A DNA stretch of 64,000 nucleotides from an uncultured Ignavibacteriota bacterium (GCA_947085405.1 CAMTWO010000014.1:48130-112129), one strand, 5' to 3'; shown: positions 18,395-30,287, numbered from the stretch's first letter. Program-made: numbers and translations. The notes: generated by a model not told the origin, from the sequence alone.

Positions 18395-19078
18395 TTATTT
18401 ACGTTCAGATAAATATATTGCCAATTGAGTAATAATCTCTTTCGAGCATTCACCAATCGCTTCCCCCATACTTTTTTCTAAATTTTTTGTTGTATTACTA
18501 TAATCATCTACTTTAAGGACATGTTTGGAGACACTTTTTCGCCATACTTCTTCATTCCCTTTAAGAAGAATTCCTGTGAGTTGGATATCAGTTGTGGCTT
18601 CAACATCAACGCTGGAGGCAATAGCAGCACCAAGAATTCCACCGATGCAAGCTTGTGTCTGTTGTGCTTTTTGTTCATTTAAGACAACATGAAATTGATT
18701 TAAAGTGCTTCTGAAGACATAATTATCATTAGCCGGTGCTCCATCAAGAATTTGTGTAAATAGTGCTGAATTGTAAAATGCCTTCTTCATGTGTTTATCT
18801 ATTTCTGGTAGTAGCGGTATCTTATAATTTTCGTCGCCAAGAATCAGTATTCCAGCTTCCCCCATTGCACATGCCCCTGGTTTTTGACCCTTTTGATCTA
18901 TTTCATTCCGTCCGTCAACGACTGGTACGTAACCCAAAGTCCCAAATTTTTCCACAACAGTGAACCCGGTTGGTTTCATTTCGGGTAGAACAGTAAATTG
19001 TCGTGGTCCACATCCTATTGCTGCAATACATATAACAAGTATCCATAAAATGAAAAATATTTTGCTAATCTTAAACAT
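18395..19078 (-). CDS. Hypothetical lipoprotein (YajG-like fold by resemblance)
   Basis: Lipobox AIGC; VVDGRN motif; GGILGAAIA; GGAGG RBS before the ATG at 19078. Confidence 0.65.
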   Translation of the reverse strand: MFKISKIFFILWILVICIAAIGCGPRQFTVLPEMKPTGFTVVEKFGTLGYVPVVDGRNEIDQKGQKPGACAMGEAGILILGDENYKIPLLPEIDKHMKKAFYNSALFTQILDGAPANDNYVFRSTLNQFHVVLNEQKAQQTQACIGGILGAAIASSVDVEATTDIQLTGILLKGNEEVWRKSVSKHVLKVDDYSNTTKNLEKSMGEAIGECSKEIITQLAIYLSERK

Positions 19079-19118
19079 GACATCCTCCATAATTTGTTAT
19101 TAGTTTATTTTATATTAC

Positions 19119-19991
19119 TTAAAAGTTGTATGCAAAGCCGATCCATGGGATGAAAGGAAAATATTCAATACGTGAACCTAATGGATGTATTAACCCGAAA
19201 TCACCCGCTACTTTATCACCGAAAAATCGAAGCCCAAATGATATAAATTGTATATCGGAATCTGGTGGTATCCAATTTTCTGAAATTAATTTCAGGCTGT
19301 TTGATAATCTCAACTCGCCACCTAAAAGTAATATCGGTTTATTTGTTAGCTCCCCGCGTGCAAATCCCCACCCAAGTCCACCAGTAAATGAGGCTTTTTC
19401 ATTTCCATAAGTGCCAACACCATAAACTATACCGAATCCACCAAAGTTTTCTATGGTGGAATTAATGTATAATACACCACCCGCTATATCGAGATTATCA
19501 GTATGTATTGGTGTGATTTTAGGTGCAAGATACAAAATCTGAAGCGGTGCTCCGGGGAAAAGCGATATTCCACCTGCAAGCGAAACGACATCGGCTATGC
19601 CGATGGCAAGCATTGGGAAAAATATTTCGTAAACAGAAAAGTAACCGTGCCCCGATCGGAGTGAGCGGGCAGTCGGTCCAAAAAATAATCGCGTATTATT
19701 CGGGTCCATACGATAATACTCTCCGCCAATAACTTCTCCCGCCAGTTTTTCGATTCTGGATATTTGATTTTTTGGTATCGTCATACTTAATCCTGAAAAT
19801 GTGTTAAAACTGACCGAATCTCCATGATCATATTCGATAAATCCGACGAGTTCGGAACCATCGTTTAGAATAATGCGCTGAACTTTTTCATTCTTTTTCT
19901 CAATCTGTTGCTCATTCCCTTTTTCTTGACTTCTCGTGTGAACCTGTAAAAACAATAACATTGAAAGTATAATTAATAATAACTTGTTCAT
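19119..19991 (-). CDS. Hypothetical outer-membrane protein (small beta N-domain plus barrel)
   Basis: Signal peptide; IILNDGSELVG N-domain; DPNNTRLFFGPTARSL; C-terminal WIGFAYNF. Confidence 0.7.
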   Translation of the reverse strand: MNKLLLIILSMLLFLQVHTRSQEKGNEQQIEKKNEKVQRIILNDGSELVGFIEYDHGDSVSFNTFSGLSMTIPKNQISRIEKLAGEVIGGEYYRMDPNNTRLFFGPTARSLRSGHGYFSVYEIFFPMLAIGIADVVSLAGGISLFPGAPLQILYLAPKITPIHTDNLDIAGGVLYINSTIENFGGFGIVYGVGTYGNEKASFTGGLGWGFARGELTNKPILLLGGELRLSNSLKLISENWIPPDSDIQFISFGLRFFGDKVAGDFGLIHPLGSRIEYFPFIPWIGFAYNF

Positions 19992-20016
19992 TGCTATACC
20001 CTTTCTTTTTTATGAG

Positions 20017-21030
20017 TTAGTAAAAGAAATATTTTAAACCAATGTTGACGTCAAATCTATTTAAACTTTCTTTTCCAAGATCGGCTGTTTTACCATTAAC
20101 TTTGAAATTAGATACAGTGCCTAATAGGTATAAAATATCTAAACCGGCTGCCCAGTTTGGGTCTAATTTGAAATCAAGTCCTACTAAACCTGAAAGCGCA
20201 AATGCCGATCCTTCGATTTCTACTGATTTATTTGGTAACTTCCAGTCATCAGAATACGTAGCAAGTCCCAAAATTCCGCTGGCATAAAGCAATATACTTT
20301 CACTCAAAAATTTTCTTTGTGCCAAACCTACACCATACATTGCTATTGATATATTATTTTCCATTTTACCTACACCGAGTATGTTCCCTGTTTCTATGTC
20401 GTATACAACCACACCGTCAACAGAATTAGAAGTCATAAAACGCGAGAAATGGAAACATATTCCATATTCTTCTCCAAAGAAATATGTAAAATTGGCGGCT
20501 ATATTATATCCACTTTTTAATTTTTCTATATAACTCTTGAAATCTGCTGGAACGTTACCAGAGACTTCCGCAGTGCGATAACTGTAGCCACCCTCTACAT
20601 TTATACGAAATTTTGGCTCATCTGTGGATTCAACAACAGGTTCATAGTATTTTTGAGGGGTTGATCGTTTTGGGGTTTGATCCCATACAACTTTAGGTTT
20701 GGCTGGTTTATCGGTTTGTGCCTTGGAAGAATCTACTTTTGGAGGAGGTAATTGTTGAGTTTTCTTTATTGTTTCATTCGTTGATTTGGTGAAATCAATC
20801 GCACCCGGTATGCCATATCTCAATATGGTTTTTATTTGGTTTGTTTTAAATGTAAAAGTACTCCCTGCTCGAGTTTGGATGGTTACTTGTTCACCTGGTA
20901 AGATTTCGGTTATTTTTCCAACTACTCTATTGCCTTCTAATAAAACGACAATATCCTTGAATTCATCCTCTTGTGCGTAAAGAATTTGGAGAGTAAGTAA
21001 GAAGATTGTTAAAATAATTCGATAGCTCAT
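20017..21030 (-). CDS. Outer-membrane beta-barrel protein with N-terminal small beta domain and Pro/Lys linker
   Basis: Signal peptide; DIVVLLEGNRVVGKI; GGYSYRTA...LKSG; C-terminal NIGLKYFFY. Confidence 0.75.
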   Translation of the reverse strand: MSYRIILTIFLLTLQILYAQEDEFKDIVVLLEGNRVVGKITEILPGEQVTIQTRAGSTFTFKTNQIKTILRYGIPGAIDFTKSTNETIKKTQQLPPPKVDSSKAQTDKPAKPKVVWDQTPKRSTPQKYYEPVVESTDEPKFRINVEGGYSYRTAEVSGNVPADFKSYIEKLKSGYNIAANFTYFFGEEYGICFHFSRFMTSNSVDGVVVYDIETGNILGVGKMENNISIAMYGVGLAQRKFLSESILLYASGILGLATYSDDWKLPNKSVEIEGSAFALSGLVGLDFKLDPNWAAGLDILYLLGTVSNFKVNGKTADLGKESLNRFDVNIGLKYFFY

Positions 21031-21394: not shown

Positions 21395-21423
21395 TTGACT
21401 TCTTCACAAAAAAGCCTTATCTT
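21395..21423 (+). promoter_or_regulatory. Putative sigma70 promoter of the fur-feo operon
   Basis: TTGACT-17 bp-TATCTT. Confidence 0.6.
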
Positions 21424-21445
21424 TATTTAGAATAATTCTAAATAA
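21423..21445. promoter_or_regulatory. Perfect 11-1-11 palindromic operator (Fur-family/ICE-like box)
   Basis: TTATTTAGAAT-A-ATTCTAAATAA lies between the -10 box and the regulator start codon. Confidence 0.8.
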
Positions 21446-21449
21446 GAAA

Positions 21450-21890
21450 ATGAGTAATAATTTAACTTCCGACATACTGAAGAAATACATAAAGGAAAAG
21501 AAACTCCGTTCCACACCTGAACGCGAGCGTATTTTGAACGAAGTTATGAAACTCGACCGCCATTTTACCACAGAAGATTTATTCGGAATCTTAAAGAAAA
21601 AGAAAGAAAAATTTGTATTAGCCACTATCTATAACACACTCGACCTTTTCGTTTCAGCAGGAATTCTCACAAAATATCGTTTAGGAGCCGAGCGATCATA
21701 CTACGAGAGAGCCATAGACAAGCCGGGACATCACCACCTGATTTGTTTAGATTGCGGAAATATAATCGAGTTTGTCGCTGATACATTATCCGATTACGAA
21801 TTGAAAATAGCAAAACAGAATAACTTCCACGTCCAAAATTCAACACATCAAATTTTTGGAATTTGTATAAAATGCCAGAAGGAAAAATAA
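21450..21890 (+). CDS. fur: Fur-family transcriptional repressor
   Basis: RSTPERERIL, HFTTEDL, ATIYNTLDLF, HHHLICLDCG and C-terminal CIKC. Confidence 0.9.
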   Translation: MSNNLTSDILKKYIKEKKLRSTPERERILNEVMKLDRHFTTEDLFGILKKKKEKFVLATIYNTLDLFVSAGILTKYRLGAERSYYERAIDKPGHHHLICLDCGNIIEFVADTLSDYELKIAKQNNFHVQNSTHQIFGICIKCQKEK

Positions 21891-21892
21891 CG

Positions 21893-22129
21893 ATGACCCC
21901 GAAAAGCCATATCCCTCTATCAAAAGTAAAAAAAGGCAACATAGTCAGGATTATAACACTCCCCGATGGTTTAGCACGAACCCAATTAATTCGTTTCGGA
22001 ATTGTGGAAGGTGATTTAGTGAAATGTTTGGAACACCTTCCCGGCGGCACAATTGTAATTCAAAAAAACCGACAGGAAATTGCACTCGGTTCGAAGCTAT
22101 CACACAAAATAATTGTAAACATAAATTAA
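21893..22129 (+). CDS. feoA: Ferrous iron transport protein A
   Basis: IPLSKVKKG...LIRFGIVEG...IALG; immediately upstream of feoB. Start at MTPKS preferred. Confidence 0.88.
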   Translation: MTPKSHIPLSKVKKGNIVRIITLPDGLARTQLIRFGIVEGDLVKCLEHLPGGTIVIQKNRQEIALGSKLSHKIIVNIN

Positions 22130-22130
22130 A

Positions 22131-24005
22131 ATGCCGACTAACGAAATTAATCATCTCGAGCATCATACACACATCGAAAAATCTCCAATCATTTCCGACA
22201 GTGCAAATCCAAAATTAGTTCTTGTCGGTAATCCAAACGTTGGCAAGTCGGTTGTCTTCAACTATCTCAGCGGTATTTATGTAGATGTATCAAATTTTCC
22301 CGGAACTACTGTCGAAATCACCAAAGGTAAATATCTTCATTACGAAGTTTACGACACACCCGGCATTTACGGTGTGTCCTCCTTCAACGACGAAGAACGG
22401 GTTGCCCGTGATATTATACTCGAAGCCGATTTCATAATTAACATTGTGGATGGTGTGCACATCGAGCGCGACCTCTTCCTAACTCAACAATTAATTGATA
22501 TGGGAAAACGAATCGTTGTAGTAATCAACTTTATGGATGAAATTAAAAAGCACCACATCAAGATTGATACTGCACAACTCGAAAAATTACTCGACGTCCC
22601 TATCGTTACAGCCACAGCCATTAAAAAAGAAGGTTTGAAAGAACTTGAACAGCTAATCGGCAAAGCGCGGCAGGGAAAACAAAGCAAAGACTTGCACTTG
22701 AAGCTCCATAATATGCTGAACTCTGTCGGTTCACAAGCTGAAGCGTTGCTTGTTTTAGAAGGAGATGAATATACAGCAAACAAACACGGAATAAAACCTT
22801 TGGAACAACGCGAACAATTATACATCGATAGACGTAATCGTGTTAACAATATCGTAAATCAAGTAATCGAAGATGCATCTGTCAGAAAACATATCACCTC
22901 GTTAATCGGCCGCTGGTCGCTCAACACTATAACCGGAATTCCAATTCTTCTCGGTGTTTTATATATCGCATATCTTTTCATCGGGAAACTTGTTGCACAG
23001 GATTTAGTTGGTTTTACCGAATCATATTTCGGAAATGAACTTTGGGAAACTTGGATTCGCTCCGCTGTTTCTGATTTCATCACTCCAACCTCCTTCCTGG
23101 GAACGGTCTTGATTGGCGAGTTCGGAGTTCTTACGATGACTATTACATACTTATTGTTTCTCTTGTTTCCGCTTGTGTTTGCTTTTTACATAACACTTTC
23201 GTTTTTGGAAGACACCGGATATTTGCCGCGACTTGCTACGATGGTTGATAGAAGTATGAATTTTTTAGGATTGAATGGACGAGCAATCATTCCGATGATA
23301 TTAGGATTTGGATGCGTTTCAGCCGCTACAATCACTACCCGTTTACTCGCAAGCGAACGTGAGAAAACTATCGCAACAGCAATTCTGCAATTTGCAATTC
23401 CCTGCTCGGCTCAACTTGCGGTAATCACAGCACTTTTGATGGGAGCCGGATTCAAAGCTCTATTGATATATGTCTTTGTAATCGTTTTGGTGTTCATTGT
23501 TATCGGAACGATATTGAACAAAATATTGAAAGGTGAATCAACTCCTTTGTTAATCGACCTGCCACCGATACGCGTTCCGAGAATGAATAATGTTTTACAA
23601 AAAACCAGTGTGCGAACTTTTTCGTTTATGAAAGAAGCCACACCCTGGTTCTTTTTCGGCGCCGCGGTTATTGGCACGATGGAGGCAACCGGTTTGCTGC
23701 AAGTTTGGCAAAAAGCACTCTCACCTTTTACAGAACATTGGCTTAAACTCCCTCCCGAAGCGACAACAGCTTTCGTAATGGGGCTTGTGCGCCGCGACTT
23801 TGGAGCCGCCGGACTTTATGATATCGCAATGAATCCAATGCAAACAGTCGTTGCATTAGTTACAATTACACTCTTTGTTCCGTGTATTACTTCCATTTTA
23901 ATAATGTATAAAGAGCGCGGTTGGAAAACTGCTACGATAATCTGGATTGGAACTTGGATTGGTTCGTTCACAATCGGTGGTATCGTCGCTCAAATTATTG
24001 TATAG
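22131..24005 (+). CDS. feoB: Ferrous iron transporter B
   Basis: GNPNVGKS, NFPGTTVE, DTPG, NFMD G-motifs; LEDTGYLPR, GFGC, IPCSAQ and FVPC membrane motifs. Confidence 0.95.
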   Translation: MPTNEINHLEHHTHIEKSPIISDSANPKLVLVGNPNVGKSVVFNYLSGIYVDVSNFPGTTVEITKGKYLHYEVYDTPGIYGVSSFNDEERVARDIILEADFIINIVDGVHIERDLFLTQQLIDMGKRIVVVINFMDEIKKHHIKIDTAQLEKLLDVPIVTATAIKKEGLKELEQLIGKARQGKQSKDLHLKLHNMLNSVGSQAEALLVLEGDEYTANKHGIKPLEQREQLYIDRRNRVNNIVNQVIEDASVRKHITSLIGRWSLNTITGIPILLGVLYIAYLFIGKLVAQDLVGFTESYFGNELWETWIRSAVSDFITPTSFLGTVLIGEFGVLTMTITYLLFLLFPLVFAFYITLSFLEDTGYLPRLATMVDRSMNFLGLNGRAIIPMILGFGCVSAATITTRLLASEREKTIATAILQFAIPCSAQLAVITALLMGAGFKALLIYVFVIVLVFIVIGTILNKILKGESTPLLIDLPPIRVPRMNNVLQKTSVRTFSFMKEATPWFFFGAAVIGTMEATGLLQVWQKALSPFTEHWLKLPPEATTAFVMGLVRRDFGAAGLYDIAMNPMQTVVALVTITLFVPCITSILIMYKERGWKTATIIWIGTWIGSFTIGGIVAQIIV

Positions 24006-24009
24006 ATAT

Positions 24010-24219
24010 ATGAATCAATCATTAACCGAAAAATTAAATCCGCCTTCCGCCTACGGCGGAGTGGACGAAACTCGCAGTTGTCCTACTTGCAAGTTCGTTA
24101 TCGAAAATCCATTTGTAGAAAAATGCCCGCGATGTTTTACTGAATTGCAGAAACTTGAAGTCGGTTGCTCAGCTTGTGCCCACAAAGCACAATGTTCATT
24201 TTTTTACATCAAAAAATAA
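24010..24219 (+). CDS. Small Cys-rich protein (69 aa) downstream of feoB
   Basis: CPTC...CPRC...GCSACAHKAQC; ATG at 24010, just after the feoB stop. Confidence 0.7.
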   Translation: MNQSLTEKLNPPSAYGGVDETRSCPTCKFVIENPFVEKCPRCFTELQKLEVGCSACAHKAQCSFFYIKK

Positions 24220-24247
24220 TTATAATAATAAATGGAGACTTTAGTAT

Positions 24248-24760
24248 ATGACAACTATGGTAAATGTTTTTGACCGCATCGACACTTATCTGACGCACTG
24301 GATGGCAAAGCAGGGAATTCGCCTTTTGCGAATAAGTATCGGTGTCATTTTTTTCTGGTTCGGCATGCTGAAATTTTTCCCGGGAATTAGCCCGGCGGAA
24401 GACTTCGCCGCCCAAACAATAGAATTGTTAACTCTTGGCAGCATTCCCGCCACGACGGCAGTGTTTTTACTCGCTGTGTGGGAGGTTTTAATCGGTCTTG
24501 GTTTGATCTTCGGTGTGTTCATGCGCGCAACGCTGTTTCTGCTGTTCACGCAGATGCTCGGTACGGTTACGCCTCTGTTCCTTCTGCCGCACGAGGTGTT
24601 CACTCATTTCCCGTACGCACTCACGTTGAAAGGACAATACATCATCAAGAATATTGTGGTCGTCAGTGCGGCGCTTGTCATCGGAGCAACGGTGAGGGGA
24701 GGTAAGCTTATTGCTGAACCGCACCACATCGTAAACCAACCGCCTAACAAGGAAAAATAA
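24248..24760 (+). CDS. DoxX/DUF417 (YkgB/RclC-like) membrane protein
   Basis: LLRISIGVIFFWFGMLKFFP, EVLIG, GQYIIKN. Confidence 0.8.
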   Translation: MTTMVNVFDRIDTYLTHWMAKQGIRLLRISIGVIFFWFGMLKFFPGISPAEDFAAQTIELLTLGSIPATTAVFLLAVWEVLIGLGLIFGVFMRATLFLLFTQMLGTVTPLFLLPHEVFTHFPYALTLKGQYIIKNIVVVSAALVIGATVRGGKLIAEPHHIVNQPPNKEK

Positions 24761-24819
24761 AAACTTTGATTTATGACAACCTCACTATAAATAATTAATT
24801 CAAAAAAAAGGAAAAACAA

Positions 24820-26052
24820 ATGAGTGAAATAATAAATAACAGTAGAAAACGAGTTGATCAACTCAAAAAACTTATACTTGATATGCATAAAGGTATAAGT
24901 GTAGAAGAAACAAGTAAAAATCTCTCGAAACTTATGGGCAGCGTTCCTTACGGTGAAGTTGTACAAGCCGAGCAGGAATTAATAAACGAAGGTTTATCGC
25001 AGGAAGAAGTATTAAAGTTCTGTGACATTCACACCGAAGCCCTAAAAGGAAAAATCGATGTCACATCTGCCCGAACTGCGCCCGTGGGGCATCCCATTGA
25101 TACTATGATTAAAGAAAATGCTGAAGTAAACAAAGAAATAAACAAGCTGAAAGATATTTTTACAAAAGTAGAATCGATGGAAGCATCGGTGGATGCAAGC
25201 AAATTATTATTTGAGATACGCTTTGCTTTCAATTCTTTAATGGATATTGAAAAGCATTATGTAAGAAAAGAGAATCTTATATTCCCCTATCTTGAAAAAT
25301 ATAACATTACCGGTCCGCCCACAGTAATGTGGGGAAAACACGATGAAGTAAGAGAATTTCTTAAATCTGCACAGAAAATTTTTAAAGAAAGTAACACGGC
25401 AATCGCAGAAGAACTTAACGGCTATATTGAGTTTATATTTAAACCTACCTTAAAAGCCATCGAGGAAATGATTTATAAAGAAGAGCAAATTCTTTTCCCA
25501 ATGTGTCTTGATGCATTCACGGAAATCGACTGGGTTGAAATTTATAATCAGAGTGATGAAATAGGATATTGCCTTTATTCTCCAAAAGTAAAGTGGACCA
25601 CTTCAATTGAAGGATACGTTGAACCAAAGAATATCGGTTCGGGGAAAATTCATCTATCAACAGGTTCTTTTTCTCTCGAGGAATTAGAAGCGCTTTTCAA
25701 CAGTCTCCCAGTTGATATTACGTTTGTTGATAAAGACGACCGCGTTAAATTTTTCTCACACGGAGAAGATAGAATATTCGAAAGAAACAAAGCTATACTT
25801 GAAAGAAAAATACAGTTTTGTCATCCTCCAAAAAGTGTGCACATAGTTGAACAGATTGTTAATGATTTCAAGTCCGGCAAACAAGATTCGGCAAAGTTCT
25901 GGATTAACTTCAAAAATAAATATGTTCATATAGCATACTATGCCGTAAGAGGAAAAAATAATGAATATCTTGGGACTCTGGAAGTAACTCAGGATATTAA
26001 ACAGTATAAAGATTTAGAAGACGAACGAAGGTTATTAACTTATGATAAATAG
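24820..26052 (+). CDS. DUF438 / hemerythrin-like / PAS domain protein
   Basis: EQELI, FCDIH, GHPIDT, HYVRKENLIFP, VMWGKHDEVR, EMIYKEEQILFP; PAS part LPVDITFVD...CHPPKS...GTLEVTQD. Confidence 0.88.
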   Translation: MSEIINNSRKRVDQLKKLILDMHKGISVEETSKNLSKLMGSVPYGEVVQAEQELINEGLSQEEVLKFCDIHTEALKGKIDVTSARTAPVGHPIDTMIKENAEVNKEINKLKDIFTKVESMEASVDASKLLFEIRFAFNSLMDIEKHYVRKENLIFPYLEKYNITGPPTVMWGKHDEVREFLKSAQKIFKESNTAIAEELNGYIEFIFKPTLKAIEEMIYKEEQILFPMCLDAFTEIDWVEIYNQSDEIGYCLYSPKVKWTTSIEGYVEPKNIGSGKIHLSTGSFSLEELEALFNSLPVDITFVDKDDRVKFFSHGEDRIFERNKAILERKIQFCHPPKSVHIVEQIVNDFKSGKQDSAKFWINFKNKYVHIAYYAVRGKNNEYLGTLEVTQDIKQYKDLEDERRLLTYDK

Positions 26053-26602
26053 TAAGGAAATGAAAATGAACAGCAACAATAATTTACACATAACACCGCA
26101 AACCATTATTGCGGATTTATTAAACACTTATCCGCAGCTTGAAGATAAGCTCATCGAAATAGCACCAGTATTCAAGAAGTTAAAAAATCCAATCTTGCGT
26201 AGAACAATCGCAAAAGTAACATCACTCAAACAGGCGGCAACAATCGGAAATATTGCTTTACCTATGCTCATAAATGAGTTACGAAAAGCTGTTGGACAGG
26301 AACTGACAGATATAACAGATAATAAATCTCCAGGAGCTATTTCAAAACCTGATTGGGTAAGCGAAGAAAATGTGAAACTGATTTACGACGCAAGAGAAGA
26401 CCTCGAAAACGGAGTCCATCCTGTTTCTAATGTGGTTAGAGATATTGAAACAATTACTGGTAATGGTATTTATCTTCTGATAACCCCATTTATTCCATTA
26501 CCATTAATCGACATTGTTAACAAAAAAGGATTTCTGACATATTCAGAAAAAATAGAAGAAAACAAATTTTACACATTTATTAAAAAAGACTTGAGTCTAT
26601 AA
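26042..26602 (+). CDS. DUF1858-domain protein
   Basis: ITPQT.IADLL..YPQL...FKKLKNPILR.T; C-terminal HPV...PFIPLPLI (DUF2249-like). Confidence 0.75.
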   Translation: MINSKEMKMNSNNNLHITPQTIIADLLNTYPQLEDKLIEIAPVFKKLKNPILRRTIAKVTSLKQAATIGNIALPMLINELRKAVGQELTDITDNKSPGAISKPDWVSEENVKLIYDAREDLENGVHPVSNVVRDIETITGNGIYLLITPFIPLPLIDIVNKKGFLTYSEKIEENKFYTFIKKDLSL

Positions 26603-26645
26603 TTCTTAAACAACAAATTATTTCAACAAACAAAGGAAACGTTAT

Positions 26646-27833
26646 ATGAAAAATATATTATCAATTACACTTTTATTAACACTTGGTTCTATAATGTCGT
26701 ATTCACAAGAACCAACTACGAGCATCGGAGGTTACGGTGAACTTCACATCAATGTTCCTGAAGGTTCGGGGAAAAAGGAAGCCGACTTCCACCGCTTCAT
26801 AATTTATTTAGGCCACAATTTCAACGAGAAGTGGTCACTAATGTCTGAACTTGAAATTGAACACGCAGGCAAAGAAGTTGAATTGGAGCAGGCGTATTTA
26901 GAATATCGATACTCGAAAGCATTGGGATTTCGTGCAGGTGTACTGTTGCAGCCGCTTGGCATCATCAATCCATACCACGAACCACCAATGTTTTTTGGCG
27001 TTGAACGCCCCAATTTTGAAAAAAGCATAATCCCAACAACTTGGTGGGAAAACGGAATTGGAGTTTTTGGTCATATTACTGATGAGGTAAATTACACTGC
27101 ACAAATAACTTCCGGTCTTCGCGCTGATGGTTTTACTGCAAAAGACGGGATACGCGGTGGAAGACAGAAAGCAATCGAGAGTTTTTCTGAAAATCCCTCT
27201 TTCATCGGAAATATAAACTACATACCAATACCCGAATTAAAAATCGGCGGCGGGGTGTTCTTTGGAAACTCAGTTCCGGCAAACGACAAACGTTCCGGTA
27301 AAATTGATGCAGACGGCTTTGTAAGTTTGGGCGTTGGGCATTTGCAATACAAGCGAAATCAATTTGAATTTAAAGCCGAGTATGCTTTCGTGAACATCGC
27401 AGATGCAGATAAAATAAACCGTGCATACCCGACAATCACGGAAAAAACCGTTAATCAAAAGATAGTAAATATCAGCGGCGATACTCTGACAATTCCTACA
27501 ATACAAAAAACATCTACACCAAATAATGTAGCGAGTATGATGAACGGATTCCTGATTGAGGGGGCATACAATTTCCTGCCTTGTTTAGTCGAAACATCAG
27601 AAGAACTTTGGGCATTCGCTCGTTTGGAAAAATACAACACACAAGCAGAGATGCCTGCCGGTTTCGTTGCCGATAATAAATATAACCGCACCGAAATTAC
27701 TTTTGGGTTGAGTTATAAACCGGTTTATAATGCGGTAGTGAAAGCCGATTTGCAAATGTTCGGTAACGAGAAAGATGGTTTCAGTAATAATCTCAAACAA
27801 TTTAATTTCGGAATAGGATACTATTTCTTTTAA
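26646..27833 (+). CDS. Outer-membrane porin (OprO/P-like family)
   Basis: Signal peptide; GGYGELH, DFHRF, ELEIEH, VELEQAY, HEPPMFFGVERP, IIPTTW; C-terminal FGIGYYFF. Confidence 0.8.
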   Translation: MKNILSITLLLTLGSIMSYSQEPTTSIGGYGELHINVPEGSGKKEADFHRFIIYLGHNFNEKWSLMSELEIEHAGKEVELEQAYLEYRYSKALGFRAGVLLQPLGIINPYHEPPMFFGVERPNFEKSIIPTTWWENGIGVFGHITDEVNYTAQITSGLRADGFTAKDGIRGGRQKAIESFSENPSFIGNINYIPIPELKIGGGVFFGNSVPANDKRSGKIDADGFVSLGVGHLQYKRNQFEFKAEYAFVNIADADKINRAYPTITEKTVNQKIVNISGDTLTIPTIQKTSTPNNVASMMNGFLIEGAYNFLPCLVETSEELWAFARLEKYNTQAEMPAGFVADNKYNRTEITFGLSYKPVYNAVVKADLQMFGNEKDGFSNNLKQFNFGIGYYFF

Positions 27834-28376
27834 ATGAAATTTTCAATCCAAATATTTTTAGCGTTCCTGGCTTGGGGGGTAGTTTATCCCCAAACCAAGA
27901 TTTTTGAGAAAGCCGCTGCATCCCTAAAAACTTATTTCGGCGATTCAGTTGAAGTCGTATCACACGTATTTAGATTTTCTGAAGAAGAAAAATTAAAAAT
28001 ACAGCAGGTTCAGAAGTCCAAAACCAATATCGATTCTATTTCTTTGTTTATATGCACAGGTGCCGGAATAAGATTAGGATATGGAGTAGTAGATAATGTG
28101 AAAGGAAAATCGCAACCGATAAGTTATCTAACTGTAATTGATACTTCAGGAGATGTTGTTGATGTGAATATACTCGTTTACCGTGAATCGCACGGGGGTG
28201 AGGTCCAGAACGAAAGTTTCCGCCGGCAATTTCGTGGGAAAAACTATCGGAATATAATTGAAATCGGTAAAGATATTAAAAGTATAAGCGGCGCCACAAT
28301 TTCTTCGCGCTCCGTTACTGGGGGCGTGAATAATATTTTAAGAATTTTTGAAATTATAAAACCATCATTGAAGTAA
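27834..28376 (+). CDS. Exported FMN-binding protein (ApbE flavinylation substrate)
   Basis: Signal peptide; YRESHGGEV; ISGATISS carries the [S/T]GA[S/T] flavinylation motif. Confidence 0.88.
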   Translation: MKFSIQIFLAFLAWGVVYPQTKIFEKAAASLKTYFGDSVEVVSHVFRFSEEEKLKIQQVQKSKTNIDSISLFICTGAGIRLGYGVVDNVKGKSQPISYLTVIDTSGDVVDVNILVYRESHGGEVQNESFRRQFRGKNYRNIIEIGKDIKSISGATISSRSVTGGVNNILRIFEIIKPSLK

Positions 28377-28877
28377 GTGATGAATAACAATTTTTCTCTA
28401 AGACAATCAGATTTTAATCTGAAAATTTTGATTACAGCTTTCCTGATTCTTCTAACATCCGGATATGGTATCGGATTACTTTTAGTTGAGCATAAGACAG
28501 CACTAAAGCCAAGCGGCATCACTGAAGAATACAAAGGTACGAACGAAGACTCGCAAGCCGATGTTATCAAATATCCTCGAAGTAAAAACGAGTTGTTCAT
28601 ATTGTTGCATAACCACATAATATCGCTTTCGCTCATCTTTTTTATCATCGGATTTATATTTTATTTCAGCTCATTAGTATCGAGTCGACTTAAAACTTTT
28701 TTAATACTTGAGCCGTTCATCAGCATAGCGATTACATTTTCTGGAATCTGGCTTTTGTGGGGAACATCCGAATTGTTTTCGTGGATTGTTTTGGTATCAG
28801 GAATTATGATGGGTTTATCTTATGCAGCAATGGTGATTTTAATACTAATAGAGTTATGGATATTAAAGACAAAATAA
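28377..28877 (+). CDS. Uncharacterised 4-TM inner-membrane protein with an HxH motif
   Basis: Four hydrophobic helices; LLHNHII; abuts the FMN-binding gene and overlaps apbE. Confidence 0.7.
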   Translation: MMNNNFSLRQSDFNLKILITAFLILLTSGYGIGLLLVEHKTALKPSGITEEYKGTNEDSQADVIKYPRSKNELFILLHNHIISLSLIFFIIGFIFYFSSLVSSRLKTFLILEPFISIAITFSGIWLLWGTSELFSWIVLVSGIMMGLSYAAMVILILIELWILKTK

Positions 28878-29884
28878 ATATTTTTAACAGACGGGATTTT
28901 CTGAAGTTAAGCGGAATTATTTTAGCGGGTAAATTAATCCTTCCTTCTAAAATATTTCCAATAATGAAACAGCCGCATAAGGTTTTGCGGTCAACATTTA
29001 CAATGGGTAGCATTGTTACAGTGGAAGCATACTGTGATGATAAAGTATTGTGTAACCTTGCAATCGATCAAGCATTCGACGAAATGAAAACCGTTGAAAT
29101 GTTGATGAGTGTATTCGATGCTTCAAGTCAAGTTTCGTTCATTAATAAGCTCGCTTACAGAGAAGCAGTTAAAGTTGATGGACGGATAATCGAGATAATG
29201 AAGTATGCACAAGAAATTTCACAACGAACAGGTGGCTATTTCGATATAACCGTTGAACCGTTGATGAAACTTTACGGTTTCAGAAGTGATGATGAGATTA
29301 AAGAAATGCCATCCGACAAAAAGTTACAGGAAGTCCTTTCCGCTGTTGGTATGGAAAACATTGTAATTAATGAAAATGAATCATCTATATTCCTGAATAA
29401 TTCCAAAACTAAAATTGATTTCGGCGGAATTGCAGTTGGTTATGCAATTGATAAAGCAGTTTCAATTTTAAAATCGCACGGAATTGAATCGGCATTGATC
29501 AATCACAGCGGCGATATTTACGCGATCGGTTCTCCGCCGGATGAAACCTCCTGGAATATCGGTATCATTGATCCGGCAAATCAAAGCGAAATAGTTGCTA
29601 CTATAAATCTAAAAGATGAAGCTCTTGCTACATCGGGCAATTATAGTAACTTCGTAATGATAGATGAAAGTAGGGTGGGACACATTTTGAATCCCAAAAA
29701 AGGGAAGATTGAAGAAAAATTTTTAAATATTTCTGTAGCCGCCCCAAAAGCTGTTGAAGCCGATGCTCTTACTACAGGACTTTTTGTTTTTGATATTGAA
29801 AAAGCCAATTCTTTTTTAAAGTTAAACGAAAATCTGAAATACATTGCGGTTTTGAGGAATGGTAATATCGTAAAGAATTATTAA
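28856..29884 (+). CDS. apbE: FAD:protein FMN transferase with a Tat-type signal
   Basis: NRRDFLK twin-arginine leader; TMGS, FDITV.PL, IDFGGIAVGYAID, GDI, ATSGNY, HILNPK, ADALTT. Start at 28856. Confidence 0.92.
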   Translation: MDIKDKINIFNRRDFLKLSGIILAGKLILPSKIFPIMKQPHKVLRSTFTMGSIVTVEAYCDDKVLCNLAIDQAFDEMKTVEMLMSVFDASSQVSFINKLAYREAVKVDGRIIEIMKYAQEISQRTGGYFDITVEPLMKLYGFRSDDEIKEMPSDKKLQEVLSAVGMENIVINENESSIFLNNSKTKIDFGGIAVGYAIDKAVSILKSHGIESALINHSGDIYAIGSPPDETSWNIGIIDPANQSEIVATINLKDEALATSGNYSNFVMIDESRVGHILNPKKGKIEEKFLNISVAAPKAVEADALTTGLFVFDIEKANSFLKLNENLKYIAVLRNGNIVKNY

Positions 29885-29911
29885 CAATTCGCAATACCAA
29901 AAAAATATCTC

Positions 29912-29940
29912 TTGACTATTATCTAAATTTATTTTATAAT
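29912..29940 (+). promoter_or_regulatory. Near-consensus sigma70 promoter of the DUF59 gene
   Basis: TTGACT-17 bp-TATAAT. Confidence 0.7.
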
Positions 29941-29966
29941 TGCATCAACATTTTTAAAAAAAAATT

Positions 29967-30287
29967 ATGAGCGAAGATAAAGCATCAATCGTTACAGAAG
30001 CTGAAGTTTATGAAGCACTCAGAGAGTGCTACGATCCGGAAATTCCGGTGAACGTCGTTGACTTAGGTTTGATTTACGATGTGAAAATAATAGATGATTG
30101 GGTTGGTATTAAAATGTCGTTAACTGCACCGGGATGTCCTGCACACACGTGGATTTCTCAAAACATCCGCAACCGGATATTGCAAATGCCCGGCATTAAA
30201 GACGCCGATGTCAGGATTGTTTGGGAACCTTTATGGAACCCCAGTTTGATGTCGGAAGAAGCTAAGAAAATTTTAGGAATGCCTTAA
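29967..30287 (+). CDS. Metal-sulfur cluster assembly factor (DUF59/SufT-like)
   Basis: YDPEIPVNVVDLGLIY, LTAPGCP, VWEPLW...MSEEAK. Confidence 0.9.
   Translation: MSEDKASIVTEAEVYEALRECYDPEIPVNVVDLGLIYDVKIIDDWVGIKMSLTAPGCPAHTWISQNIRNRILQMPGIKDADVRIVWEPLWNPSLMSEEAKKILGMP

Follow-up and report, generated by a model that had tools for sequence, protein, structure and literature searches.

The window analysed here, a stretch of 64,000 nucleotides (nt) from an uncultured Ignavibacteriota bacterium (GCA_947085405.1, CAMTWO010000014.1:48130-112129), carries at 21450-30287 on its plus strand an operon of twelve co-oriented open reading frames (ORFs) that overlap or are separated by gaps of 0-82 nt. 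The operon begins with a Fur-family gene behind a Fur box and joins the ferrous iron transporter FeoAB to an envelope module, namely an outer-membrane porin, an exported flavin mononucleotide (FMN)-binding protein of the FMN_bind family, an inner-membrane protein with four predicted transmembrane helices (4-TM protein) and the flavin transferase ApbE; it is considered below as a candidate system for reductive iron uptake. The porin, FMN_bind and 4-TM genes, hereafter the trio, abut with zero gap, and the 4-TM and ApbE genes overlap by 22 nt. Pfam and NCBIfam profiles support the assignment of Fur, FeoA, FeoB, DoxX, DUF438/hemerythrin/PAS_10, DUF1858, FMN_bind, ApbE and DUF59. An earlier reading of this DNA, made without database searches (the sequence-only reading), had noted twelve co-oriented genes with small gaps or overlaps and with Fur at the head, had given family names that recur here, and had pointed to an SGAT motif in the FMN_bind protein, a twin-arginine signal on ApbE and the lack of Rnf, Nqr, NosR, MsrQ or PepSY partners. 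All of this was borne out: the twelve plus-strand ORFs are in place, the profiles (for the porin, an AlphaFold2 (AF2) model and Foldseek) agree with the names, both motifs are present, Pfam finds none of the five partner types in the operon proteins, and the first gene is the sole Fur-family gene of the window's own genome (G000, 99.95% complete). The features of the locus are as follows.

21395..21423, plus strand: promoter-like site TTGACT-17 nt-TATCTT, directly 5' of the Fur box; consensus scan, 9/12 matches, a lead only
21425..21443, palindromic, no strand assigned: Fur box, 19-bp palindrome ATTTAGAATAATTCTAAAT, ending 7 nt 5' of the fur ATG
21450..21890, plus strand: Fur-family regulator (PF01475, 98.2 bits against a cut-off of 23.1)
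21863..22129, plus strand: FeoA (PF04023, 45.2 bits)
22131..24005, plus strand: FeoB ferrous-iron transporter (TIGR00437, 370.2 bits against a cut-off of 315.65), with FeoB_N, Gate and FeoB_C domains
24010..24219, plus strand: small Cys-rich protein (ORF 23947-24219, probable start 24010), no Pfam or NCBIfam family
24248..24760, plus strand: DoxX-like protein (Pfam)
24820..26052, plus strand: DUF438-hemerythrin-PAS_10 protein (Pfam)
26042..26602, plus strand: DUF1858 protein (Pfam)
26646..27833, plus strand: outer-membrane porin, distantly OprO/OprP-like (signal peptide, C-terminal YYFF, AF2 barrel, Foldseek)
27834..28376, plus strand: FMN_bind protein, exported, N-terminally anchored, RnfG-like (PF04205, 40.2 bits against a cut-off of 22)
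28377..28877, plus strand: 4-TM inner-membrane protein, Aq_1264_TM (PF27139; precomputed Pfam, Atlas, AF2)
28856..29884, plus strand: ApbE flavin transferase (ORF from 28757, probable start 28856; PF02424, 247 bits against a cut-off of 25.6)
29967..30287, plus strand: DUF59 (SufT-like) iron-sulphur (Fe-S) assembly protein (PF01883, 65.7 bits)

The operon is very probably under Fur control, judging by the operator-like palindrome at its head. This box is the only perfect TTTAGA-N5-TCTAAA in the genome and matches the Fur-box consensus of Riemerella anatipestifer in 18 of 18 non-central positions, the central base alone being different. According to PMC5609570, the R. anatipestifer 19-mer was predicted from Fur- and iron-regulated promoters, and purified Fur bound four promoter fragments containing the box in an electrophoretic mobility shift assay. 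The regulator itself scores under the cut-offs of the NCBIfam Fur, PerR and Zur equivalogs, so that its sequence assigns no metal specificity; expression of the operon in this organism is expected to respond to iron, as we infer from the box and its company. The scan for sigma-70 promoters, which supplied the promoter-like site next to the box, returned 30 sites compared to 29.5 expected from shuffled sequences, that is, showed no enrichment as a whole.

The box recurs with the module in other genomes. If a box is required to match 11 or 12 of the 12 arm positions and to lie no more than 120 nt 5' of a gene, 26 of 35 related loci have one before the first module gene (or before fur), compared to 9 of the 452 remaining genes of these loci. 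This count left out five loci in which the 4-TM ORF was lost in gene calling; when they are included, 11 other genes possess a box, 9 of which are divergent neighbours that have their intergenic region in common with the module. Because the loci are kin rather than independent, the Fisher value for this enrichment is too strong, although the loci still span many families and their flanks are unrelated. The TTTAGA-N5-TCTAAA sequence is found in three settings: ahead of fur in clusters that begin with it, ahead of the porin gene where the trio is by itself, and ahead of ApbE in four GC-rich loci. Among named Flavobacteriaceae loci that carry the trio, 27 of 30 have a box no more than 200 nt upstream of the porin gene; these carriers include cultured marine genera, Maribacter, Gillisia, Algibacter and Tamlana. 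Five genomes in which the trio is unlinked from feo were examined, and four of them (G337, G173, G377 and G020) have their best FeoB orthologue in a separate fur-feoB operon with the same box before fur (L127-L130); in the fifth, G219, fur and feoB are non-adjacent and no box was seen before its fur. Within the window's own genome, the closest second box (one arm mismatch) lies at contig C3:69130 (L112, 5131-5147), where a chloramphenicol-acetyltransferase-like gene ends, with a catalase gene upstream and a small Lys-rich ORF starting ~40 nt after it, and not at an iron gene.

The trio is the conserved core of the module. In the phylum of the window, a profile search detected the 4-TM gene in 44 of 401 genomes. 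Of the 43 matches outside the window's own genome, 42 were extended to loci of ~19 kilobases (kb), the omitted one being a 32-residue fragment at a contig end, and homologues of all twelve operon proteins were sought in these loci. The three genes of the trio lie side by side in 38 of the 42 loci; the four exceptions are a contig end (L055), L060, and two divergent, partial homologues in other contexts (L076 and L081). ApbE is adjacent to the trio in 19 loci, FeoB belongs to the cluster in nine, and an FTR1-FtrD fusion permease in two (L051 and L073). Besides transporters, iron-linked neighbours include ferritin (L053, L060), HmuY-like proteins (L060, L077) and a TonB receptor (L077). In L060, the FMN_bind and 4-TM genes are preceded by a DUF6607 gene instead of a porin gene, an HmuY-like gene of the type IX secretion system (T9SS) kind diverges behind a Fur box, and the ferritin gene lies downstream. 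The FMN_bind and 4-TM proteins fall into two diverged subfamilies (~20% identity), both of which are Feo-linked.

The order of the trio and its abutting or overlapping reading frames are kept across families with 20-35% identity and unrelated flanks, which argues against the view that ApbE and the FMN_bind protein are a pair that has no function in common with the porin, the 4-TM protein and Feo, all of which would owe their proximity to descent alone. The sharing of one operator by the trio and by fur-feo speaks against that view as well. It can draw on the kinship of most Feo-linked loci and on complex prediction, which showed no contact but gave no verdict (for the 4-TM and FMN_bind proteins the score was 0.00 in both runs, with two alignments, and is no evidence either way); we consider a lack of any common function extremely improbable.

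Three genes of the operon, DoxX, DUF438 and DUF1858 (24248-26602), are a lineage-specific insertion and not part of the system, as indicated by comparison of related sequences. In the 93%-identical locus L001, the order is Fur, FeoA, FeoB, Cys-rich protein, porin, FMN_bind, 4-TM, ApbE and DUF59, without this block; a DUF438 homologue was found in 4 of 81 genomes of the order (the window's included) and in none of four genomes of the same genus; and in 4 of 4 loci elsewhere DUF438 and DUF1858 form a conserved pair with neither Feo nor module genes beside it. The possibility that all twelve genes form one conserved unit was rejected on the same three observations. Of the three proteins that, according to the sequence-only reading, may handle cytoplasmic iron or Fe-S clusters, DUF438 and DUF1858, together with DoxX, fall outside the system; the third carries the DUF59 domain (PF01883). 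Possible roles for a hemerythrin-PAS protein in an iron operon include sensing of oxygen, of nitric oxide or of iron.

The S-G-A-T motif occupies residues 152-155 of the FMN_bind protein, which starts with a hydrophobic segment, and no variation occurs at G153, A154, T155 and S157 among 40 FMN_bind homologues. The twin-arginine motif of ApbE, RRDFLK, follows the Met encoded at 28856. In the essentially complete genome G000 there are one ApbE gene, one FMN_bind gene and one Fur-family gene, all inside the operon, and the search for NqrB/RnfD (PF03116) gave 0 matches. ApbE and the FMN_bind protein are accordingly a dedicated enzyme-substrate pair, as read from motifs and gene content, and it is highly likely that Thr155 is flavinylated by the ApbE of the same operon. 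The profile of the FMN_bind family matches the RnfG chains 9eri_G (E = 1.6e-13) and 7zc6_G in the PDB, but the protein does not reach any of the NCBIfam RnfG/NqrC equivalogs (42.3 against a cut-off of 205, 34.2 against 102 and 16.9 against 144); by these comparisons it is RnfG-like in fold and not an Rnf or Nqr subunit. Similarly, ApbE scores 135 against the cut-off of 498 of the E. coli ApbE equivalog NF007774, which it does not reach.

No Pfam family, PF07396 included, matches the porin ORF (26646-27833) even at E ≤ 10; the ORF is identified from the AF2 model, a beta-barrel with a predicted local distance difference test score (pLDDT) of 87.9 that Foldseek matches to OmpT, OmpM1, OmpF and OprP with a probability of 1.00 and E values from 3e-12 to 2.5e-10. 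Neighbouring clusters in the Atlas carry Porin_O_P in 14-100% of their members. Sixteen columns are invariant among 36 homologues, including E68, E72, E81 and H111. The three invariant acidic residues would suit a cation channel and in this respect favour a variant of the uptake scheme in which the porin admits Fe(II) and the flavoprotein, under micro-oxic conditions, keeps periplasmic iron reduced or removes oxidants for the benefit of FeoB, with no external Fe(III) being mobilised. The same Fur control and the same Feo linkage would be expected as for the reductive uptake of Fe(III) outlined below, from which this variant is inseparable by computation, and it requires the same electron input; we regard such a guardian role for Fe(II) as improbable.

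The 4-TM protein is the least familiar component. Its assignment to the recent Pfam family Aq_1264_TM (PF27139) comes from precomputed Pfam annotation of the identical protein and of 8 of 8 matches, along with Atlas clusters in which 84-99% of the members carry PF27139; the family comprises 337 representative clusters at 50% identity (E ≤ 0.001). The AF2 model is a four-helix membrane bundle (pLDDT 96), and in an alignment of 83 homologues only H78 and H80 are invariant. From the positive-inside rule applied to the sequence and the AF2 helices, we read both ends of the protein as probably cytoplasmic, which would place this HxH motif in helix 2, 8-10 residues from its periplasmic end and about one third of the way into the membrane. 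With one conserved site near the outer face, oxidation of quinol there would be likelier than electron transfer across the whole membrane. Alternatively, a cofactor site could be formed by dimerisation, by analogy with FezC, for which this has been described (10.1101/2024.03.13.584918). Structure and profile searches yielded no relative of established function: Foldseek found no match of the model in the PDB at E ≤ 0.001; a wide VIA-align search returned generic four-helix bundles only (best Z 9.2, under the meaningful level for helical bundles); the profile had no match among PDB sequences at E ≤ 1; Pfam, with E values up to 10 allowed, yielded nothing beyond noise (CopD 2.4, SirB 4, DUF2085 5.4); no fused forms of at least 325 amino acids (aa) were found, in a search that gives weak evidence; and no literature on PF27139 or Aq_1264 was found. 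Electron delivery by the 4-TM protein is a guess and the weakest link of the mechanism.

Taken together, the genes present, the Fur box and the neighbourhood make iron acquisition under iron starvation the most likely function, and we estimate the chances to be about even that the operon is a Fur-repressed iron-acquisition system working in full as follows. When iron is scarce, the cell's single Fur would leave the box, which would overlap the promoter, and the operon would be transcribed. FeoAB would serve as the inner-membrane Fe(II) importer and, beside it, the envelope module would consist of a porin that admits an iron species, the RnfG-like FMN_bind protein anchored at the periplasmic face and the Aq_1264_TM protein in the inner membrane, these three perhaps in contact. 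ApbE, exported through the twin-arginine pathway, would attach FMN to Thr155, and the 4-TM protein would couple the resulting flavoprotein to an electron source in the membrane, most simply quinol oxidised at the periplasmic face. The reduced flavin would then convert Fe(III), free or chelated, into Fe(II), to be imported by FeoB or, in some relatives, by the FTR1-FtrD permease in its stead; DUF59 would act later, in cytoplasmic Fe-S assembly.

Several observations weigh against this scheme, first of all those on its genomic context. The 11 loci with a linked transporter all fall within the order to which the window belongs (14 matching genomes) and hence are kin rather than independent cases; of the three other loci of the order, two end at a contig edge just before the porin. 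In 28 of the 42 loci, no iron transporter is encoded within ~9.5 kb of the trio, which is flanked by unrelated housekeeping genes except for the ferritin genes of L053 and L060 and the HmuY-like gene of L060. Occurrence of the module independently of iron genes had been set beforehand, in the sequence-only reading, as a finding that would tell against it, and this is literally what these loci show, although the Fur box remains. The same reading's reductive iron-uptake system, taken as a whole, is partly supported: the Fur box, the dedicated ApbE/FMN_bind pair and the iron neighbours speak for it, these loci speak against it, and the inserted block does not belong to it.

Other contrary points concern the 4-TM protein, which has a single conserved polar site and resembles known haem or quinone proteins neither in sequence nor in fold. 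Homologues of ~250 aa that match helices 2-4 only are present in 96 of 401 genomes of Pseudomonadota, and these distant relatives reside in clusters for hydrogenase maturation and cytochrome c: among 30 loci (L082-L111), eight are located between HybE-like and HupK-like [NiFe]-hydrogenase maturation genes, about eight are tandem copies before c-type cytochromes, and six lie between yceD and a transglycosylase gene. The family therefore is not iron-specific as such. The proximity to c-type cytochromes, along with the presence of Fur-box controlled modules that are not beside an iron transporter, is compatible with an iron-sparing replacement, whereby the flavoprotein and its 4-TM partner would substitute, under starvation, for a haem or Fe-S periplasmic electron carrier of a respiratory or repair pathway, much as flavodoxin does for ferredoxin, rather than reduce iron to be taken up; exchange of flavinylated and cytochrome modules has indeed been described, according to PMC8238504. 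Against such a replacement stands the dedicated porin, whose gene shows translational coupling with that of the flavoprotein in 38 of the 42 loci; furthermore, the clusters encode no terminal oxidoreductase, and their informative neighbours are iron importers or stores. We consider iron sparing unlikely on these grounds.

Another contrary point is that in one genus (L062, L064, L065 and L066) a gene for a PCuAC copper-chaperone-like protein follows the module. These GC-rich genomes show the order ApbE, porin, FMN_bind, 4-TM and PCuAC-like, with an AT-rich Fur box before ApbE. The PCuAC-like gene, and the weak, non-significant similarity of the 4-TM protein to CopD (E 2.4), could hint at a reductase for another metal, for example, of Cu(II) to Cu(I), or at a general periplasmic metal reductase that is sometimes recruited to iron. 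However, the four loci belong to one genus and represent one event, they too possess the Fur box, and all other informative neighbours are iron-related, so that this explanation is very unlikely.

The regulatory evidence also has its exceptions. Nine of the 35 related loci lack a box. In the subfamily-B loci L072, L075 and L078, which have no adjacent fur, feoA is preceded at ~60 nt by another palindrome, of the type GGACTAA-N-TTAGTCC, which may be a variant operator. The window's porin gene lacks a box of its own (score 9/12), and the module here therefore relies on ~5 kb of read-through from the fur promoter, across the inserted genes. Finally, the box is not enriched genome-wide in G000, with 27 sites at 11 or more of 12 matches compared to 48 for a control pattern.

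The remaining genes of the locus can be described briefly. The FeoB gene of the operon encodes the only full FeoB of the genome. The small Cys-rich protein (~69 aa, with four Cys pairs) has homologues after feoB in L001, L072, L075, L078 and L079 and may be a FeoC-like accessory protein. The DUF59 gene follows ApbE in L001, L051, L072, L073, L075, L078 and L079, and its product scores under the cut-offs of both TIGR02945 (106.2 against 143.4) and TIGR03406 (107.3 against 202.6). In the 82-nt gap before this gene, TTGACT-17 nt-TATAAT at 29912-29940 (11/12) is the best sigma-70-like match in the region, and DUF59 may have its own promoter, to judge from this match. Directly upstream of the operon, at 18395-21030 on the minus strand, lie genes for three signal-peptide proteins (231, 290 and 337 aa), the 337-aa one with a beta-barrel-like C-terminal half.

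The principle that flavinylated proteins take part in iron reduction and assimilation is already published. Flavinylation (ApbE) clusters co-located with iron transporters have been reported, with a proposed role in iron reduction and assimilation, and assigned to PepSY-like, MsrQ-like, DsbD/DUF3570, NQR/RNF-like and P19-FTR1 classes (Meheust et al. 2021, PMC8238504). As these clusters and the DUF4405/FezC cytochromes (10.1101/2024.03.13.584918) are presented in the two sources, they share with the operon described here an extracytosolic ApbE, a signal-bearing flavinylated substrate, an iron transporter nearby and a proposed reduction of Fe(III); here, too, ApbE and its signal-bearing substrate are encoded within five genes of an iron transporter (FeoB, or FTR1-FtrD in L051 and L073), the distance applied by Meheust et al. 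None of the five transmembrane components of those classes (PF12801, PF01794, PF03929/PF16357, PF02683, and PF03116 with PF00175) was detected in the twelve proteins at E ≤ 0.01. Unlike in the classes and DUF4405 proteins presented there, the membrane partner is Aq_1264_TM with its single HxH, the unit includes a dedicated porin, and the transporter is FeoAB. The words 'FeoB' and 'porin' appear 0 times in the main text of PMC8238504, the supplementary tables of which may list such clusters, and no literature joining ApbE, FeoB, a porin and Fur was found; among papers that name both ApbE and FeoB, the R. anatipestifer study alone is relevant. The searched literature thus contains neither this composition nor the 4-TM partner, the porin or the regulon evidence, and the statement in the sequence-only reading that no such system had been characterised stands for this composition but not for the general idea, which is in print (PMC8238504).

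Against this background, one may tentatively propose, although we are inclined to doubt it, that the porin, the flavinylated RnfG-like protein and the Aq_1264_TM protein make up a self-contained, iron-free ferric reductase path spanning the envelope, in which the 4-TM HxH protein oxidises quinol and represents a sixth, hitherto unrecognised class of membrane partners that feed electrons to ApbE-flavinylated proteins. The cofactor site would then lie near the periplasmic face, possibly formed by dimerisation, the porin would be a selective channel for the iron species undergoing reduction, and the whole would represent a Fur-controlled route by which iron is reductively taken up widely in Bacteroidota. 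How Gram-negative bacteria supply FeoB with Fe(II) is poorly understood, and the Fur-controlled module would be a concrete, testable candidate; a role for the 4-TM family would also annotate its relatives in hydrogenase and cytochrome c clusters. Since there are cultured Flavobacteriaceae among the carriers, both genetics and biochemistry are feasible.

Outside the flavinylation clusters, a possible regulatory parallel is found in R. anatipestifer, which has the same Fur-box consensus and an iron-restriction-induced ApbE in a cluster with a gene for an outer-membrane protein. According to PMC5609570, the genes RAYM_04481-04506 are induced by iron restriction and annotated as a TonB-dependent receptor, two hypothetical proteins, a 'nitric oxide synthase' and ApbE, with ApbE listed as iron-regulated, not Fur-regulated. 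Compared to RnfG and NqrC, the FMN_bind protein shares the fold and a covalent FMN site (predicted here), whereas the equivalog scores far under the cut-offs and the lack of NqrB/RnfD in the genome set it apart from Rnf and Nqr. Flavin-based extracellular electron transfer in Listeria (PplA, FmnB, EetA/EetB and Ndh2) likewise combines an ApbE-type transferase and an FMN-carrying extracytosolic protein with small membrane proteins, not known to bind a cofactor, between the quinone pool and the flavoprotein; unlike the present system, it belongs to a Gram-positive bacterium without a porin, employs a dedicated NADH dehydrogenase and quinone, and is respiratory rather than assimilatory. The porin-cytochrome conduits of the MtrCAB type resemble the module in that an outer-membrane barrel is encoded together with a periplasmic electron carrier acting on iron. 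In contrast to MtrCAB, the barrel encoded here models as a general-porin-like one, probably too narrow to sheath a protein, and the predicted carrier is a flavoprotein rather than a multihaem cytochrome.

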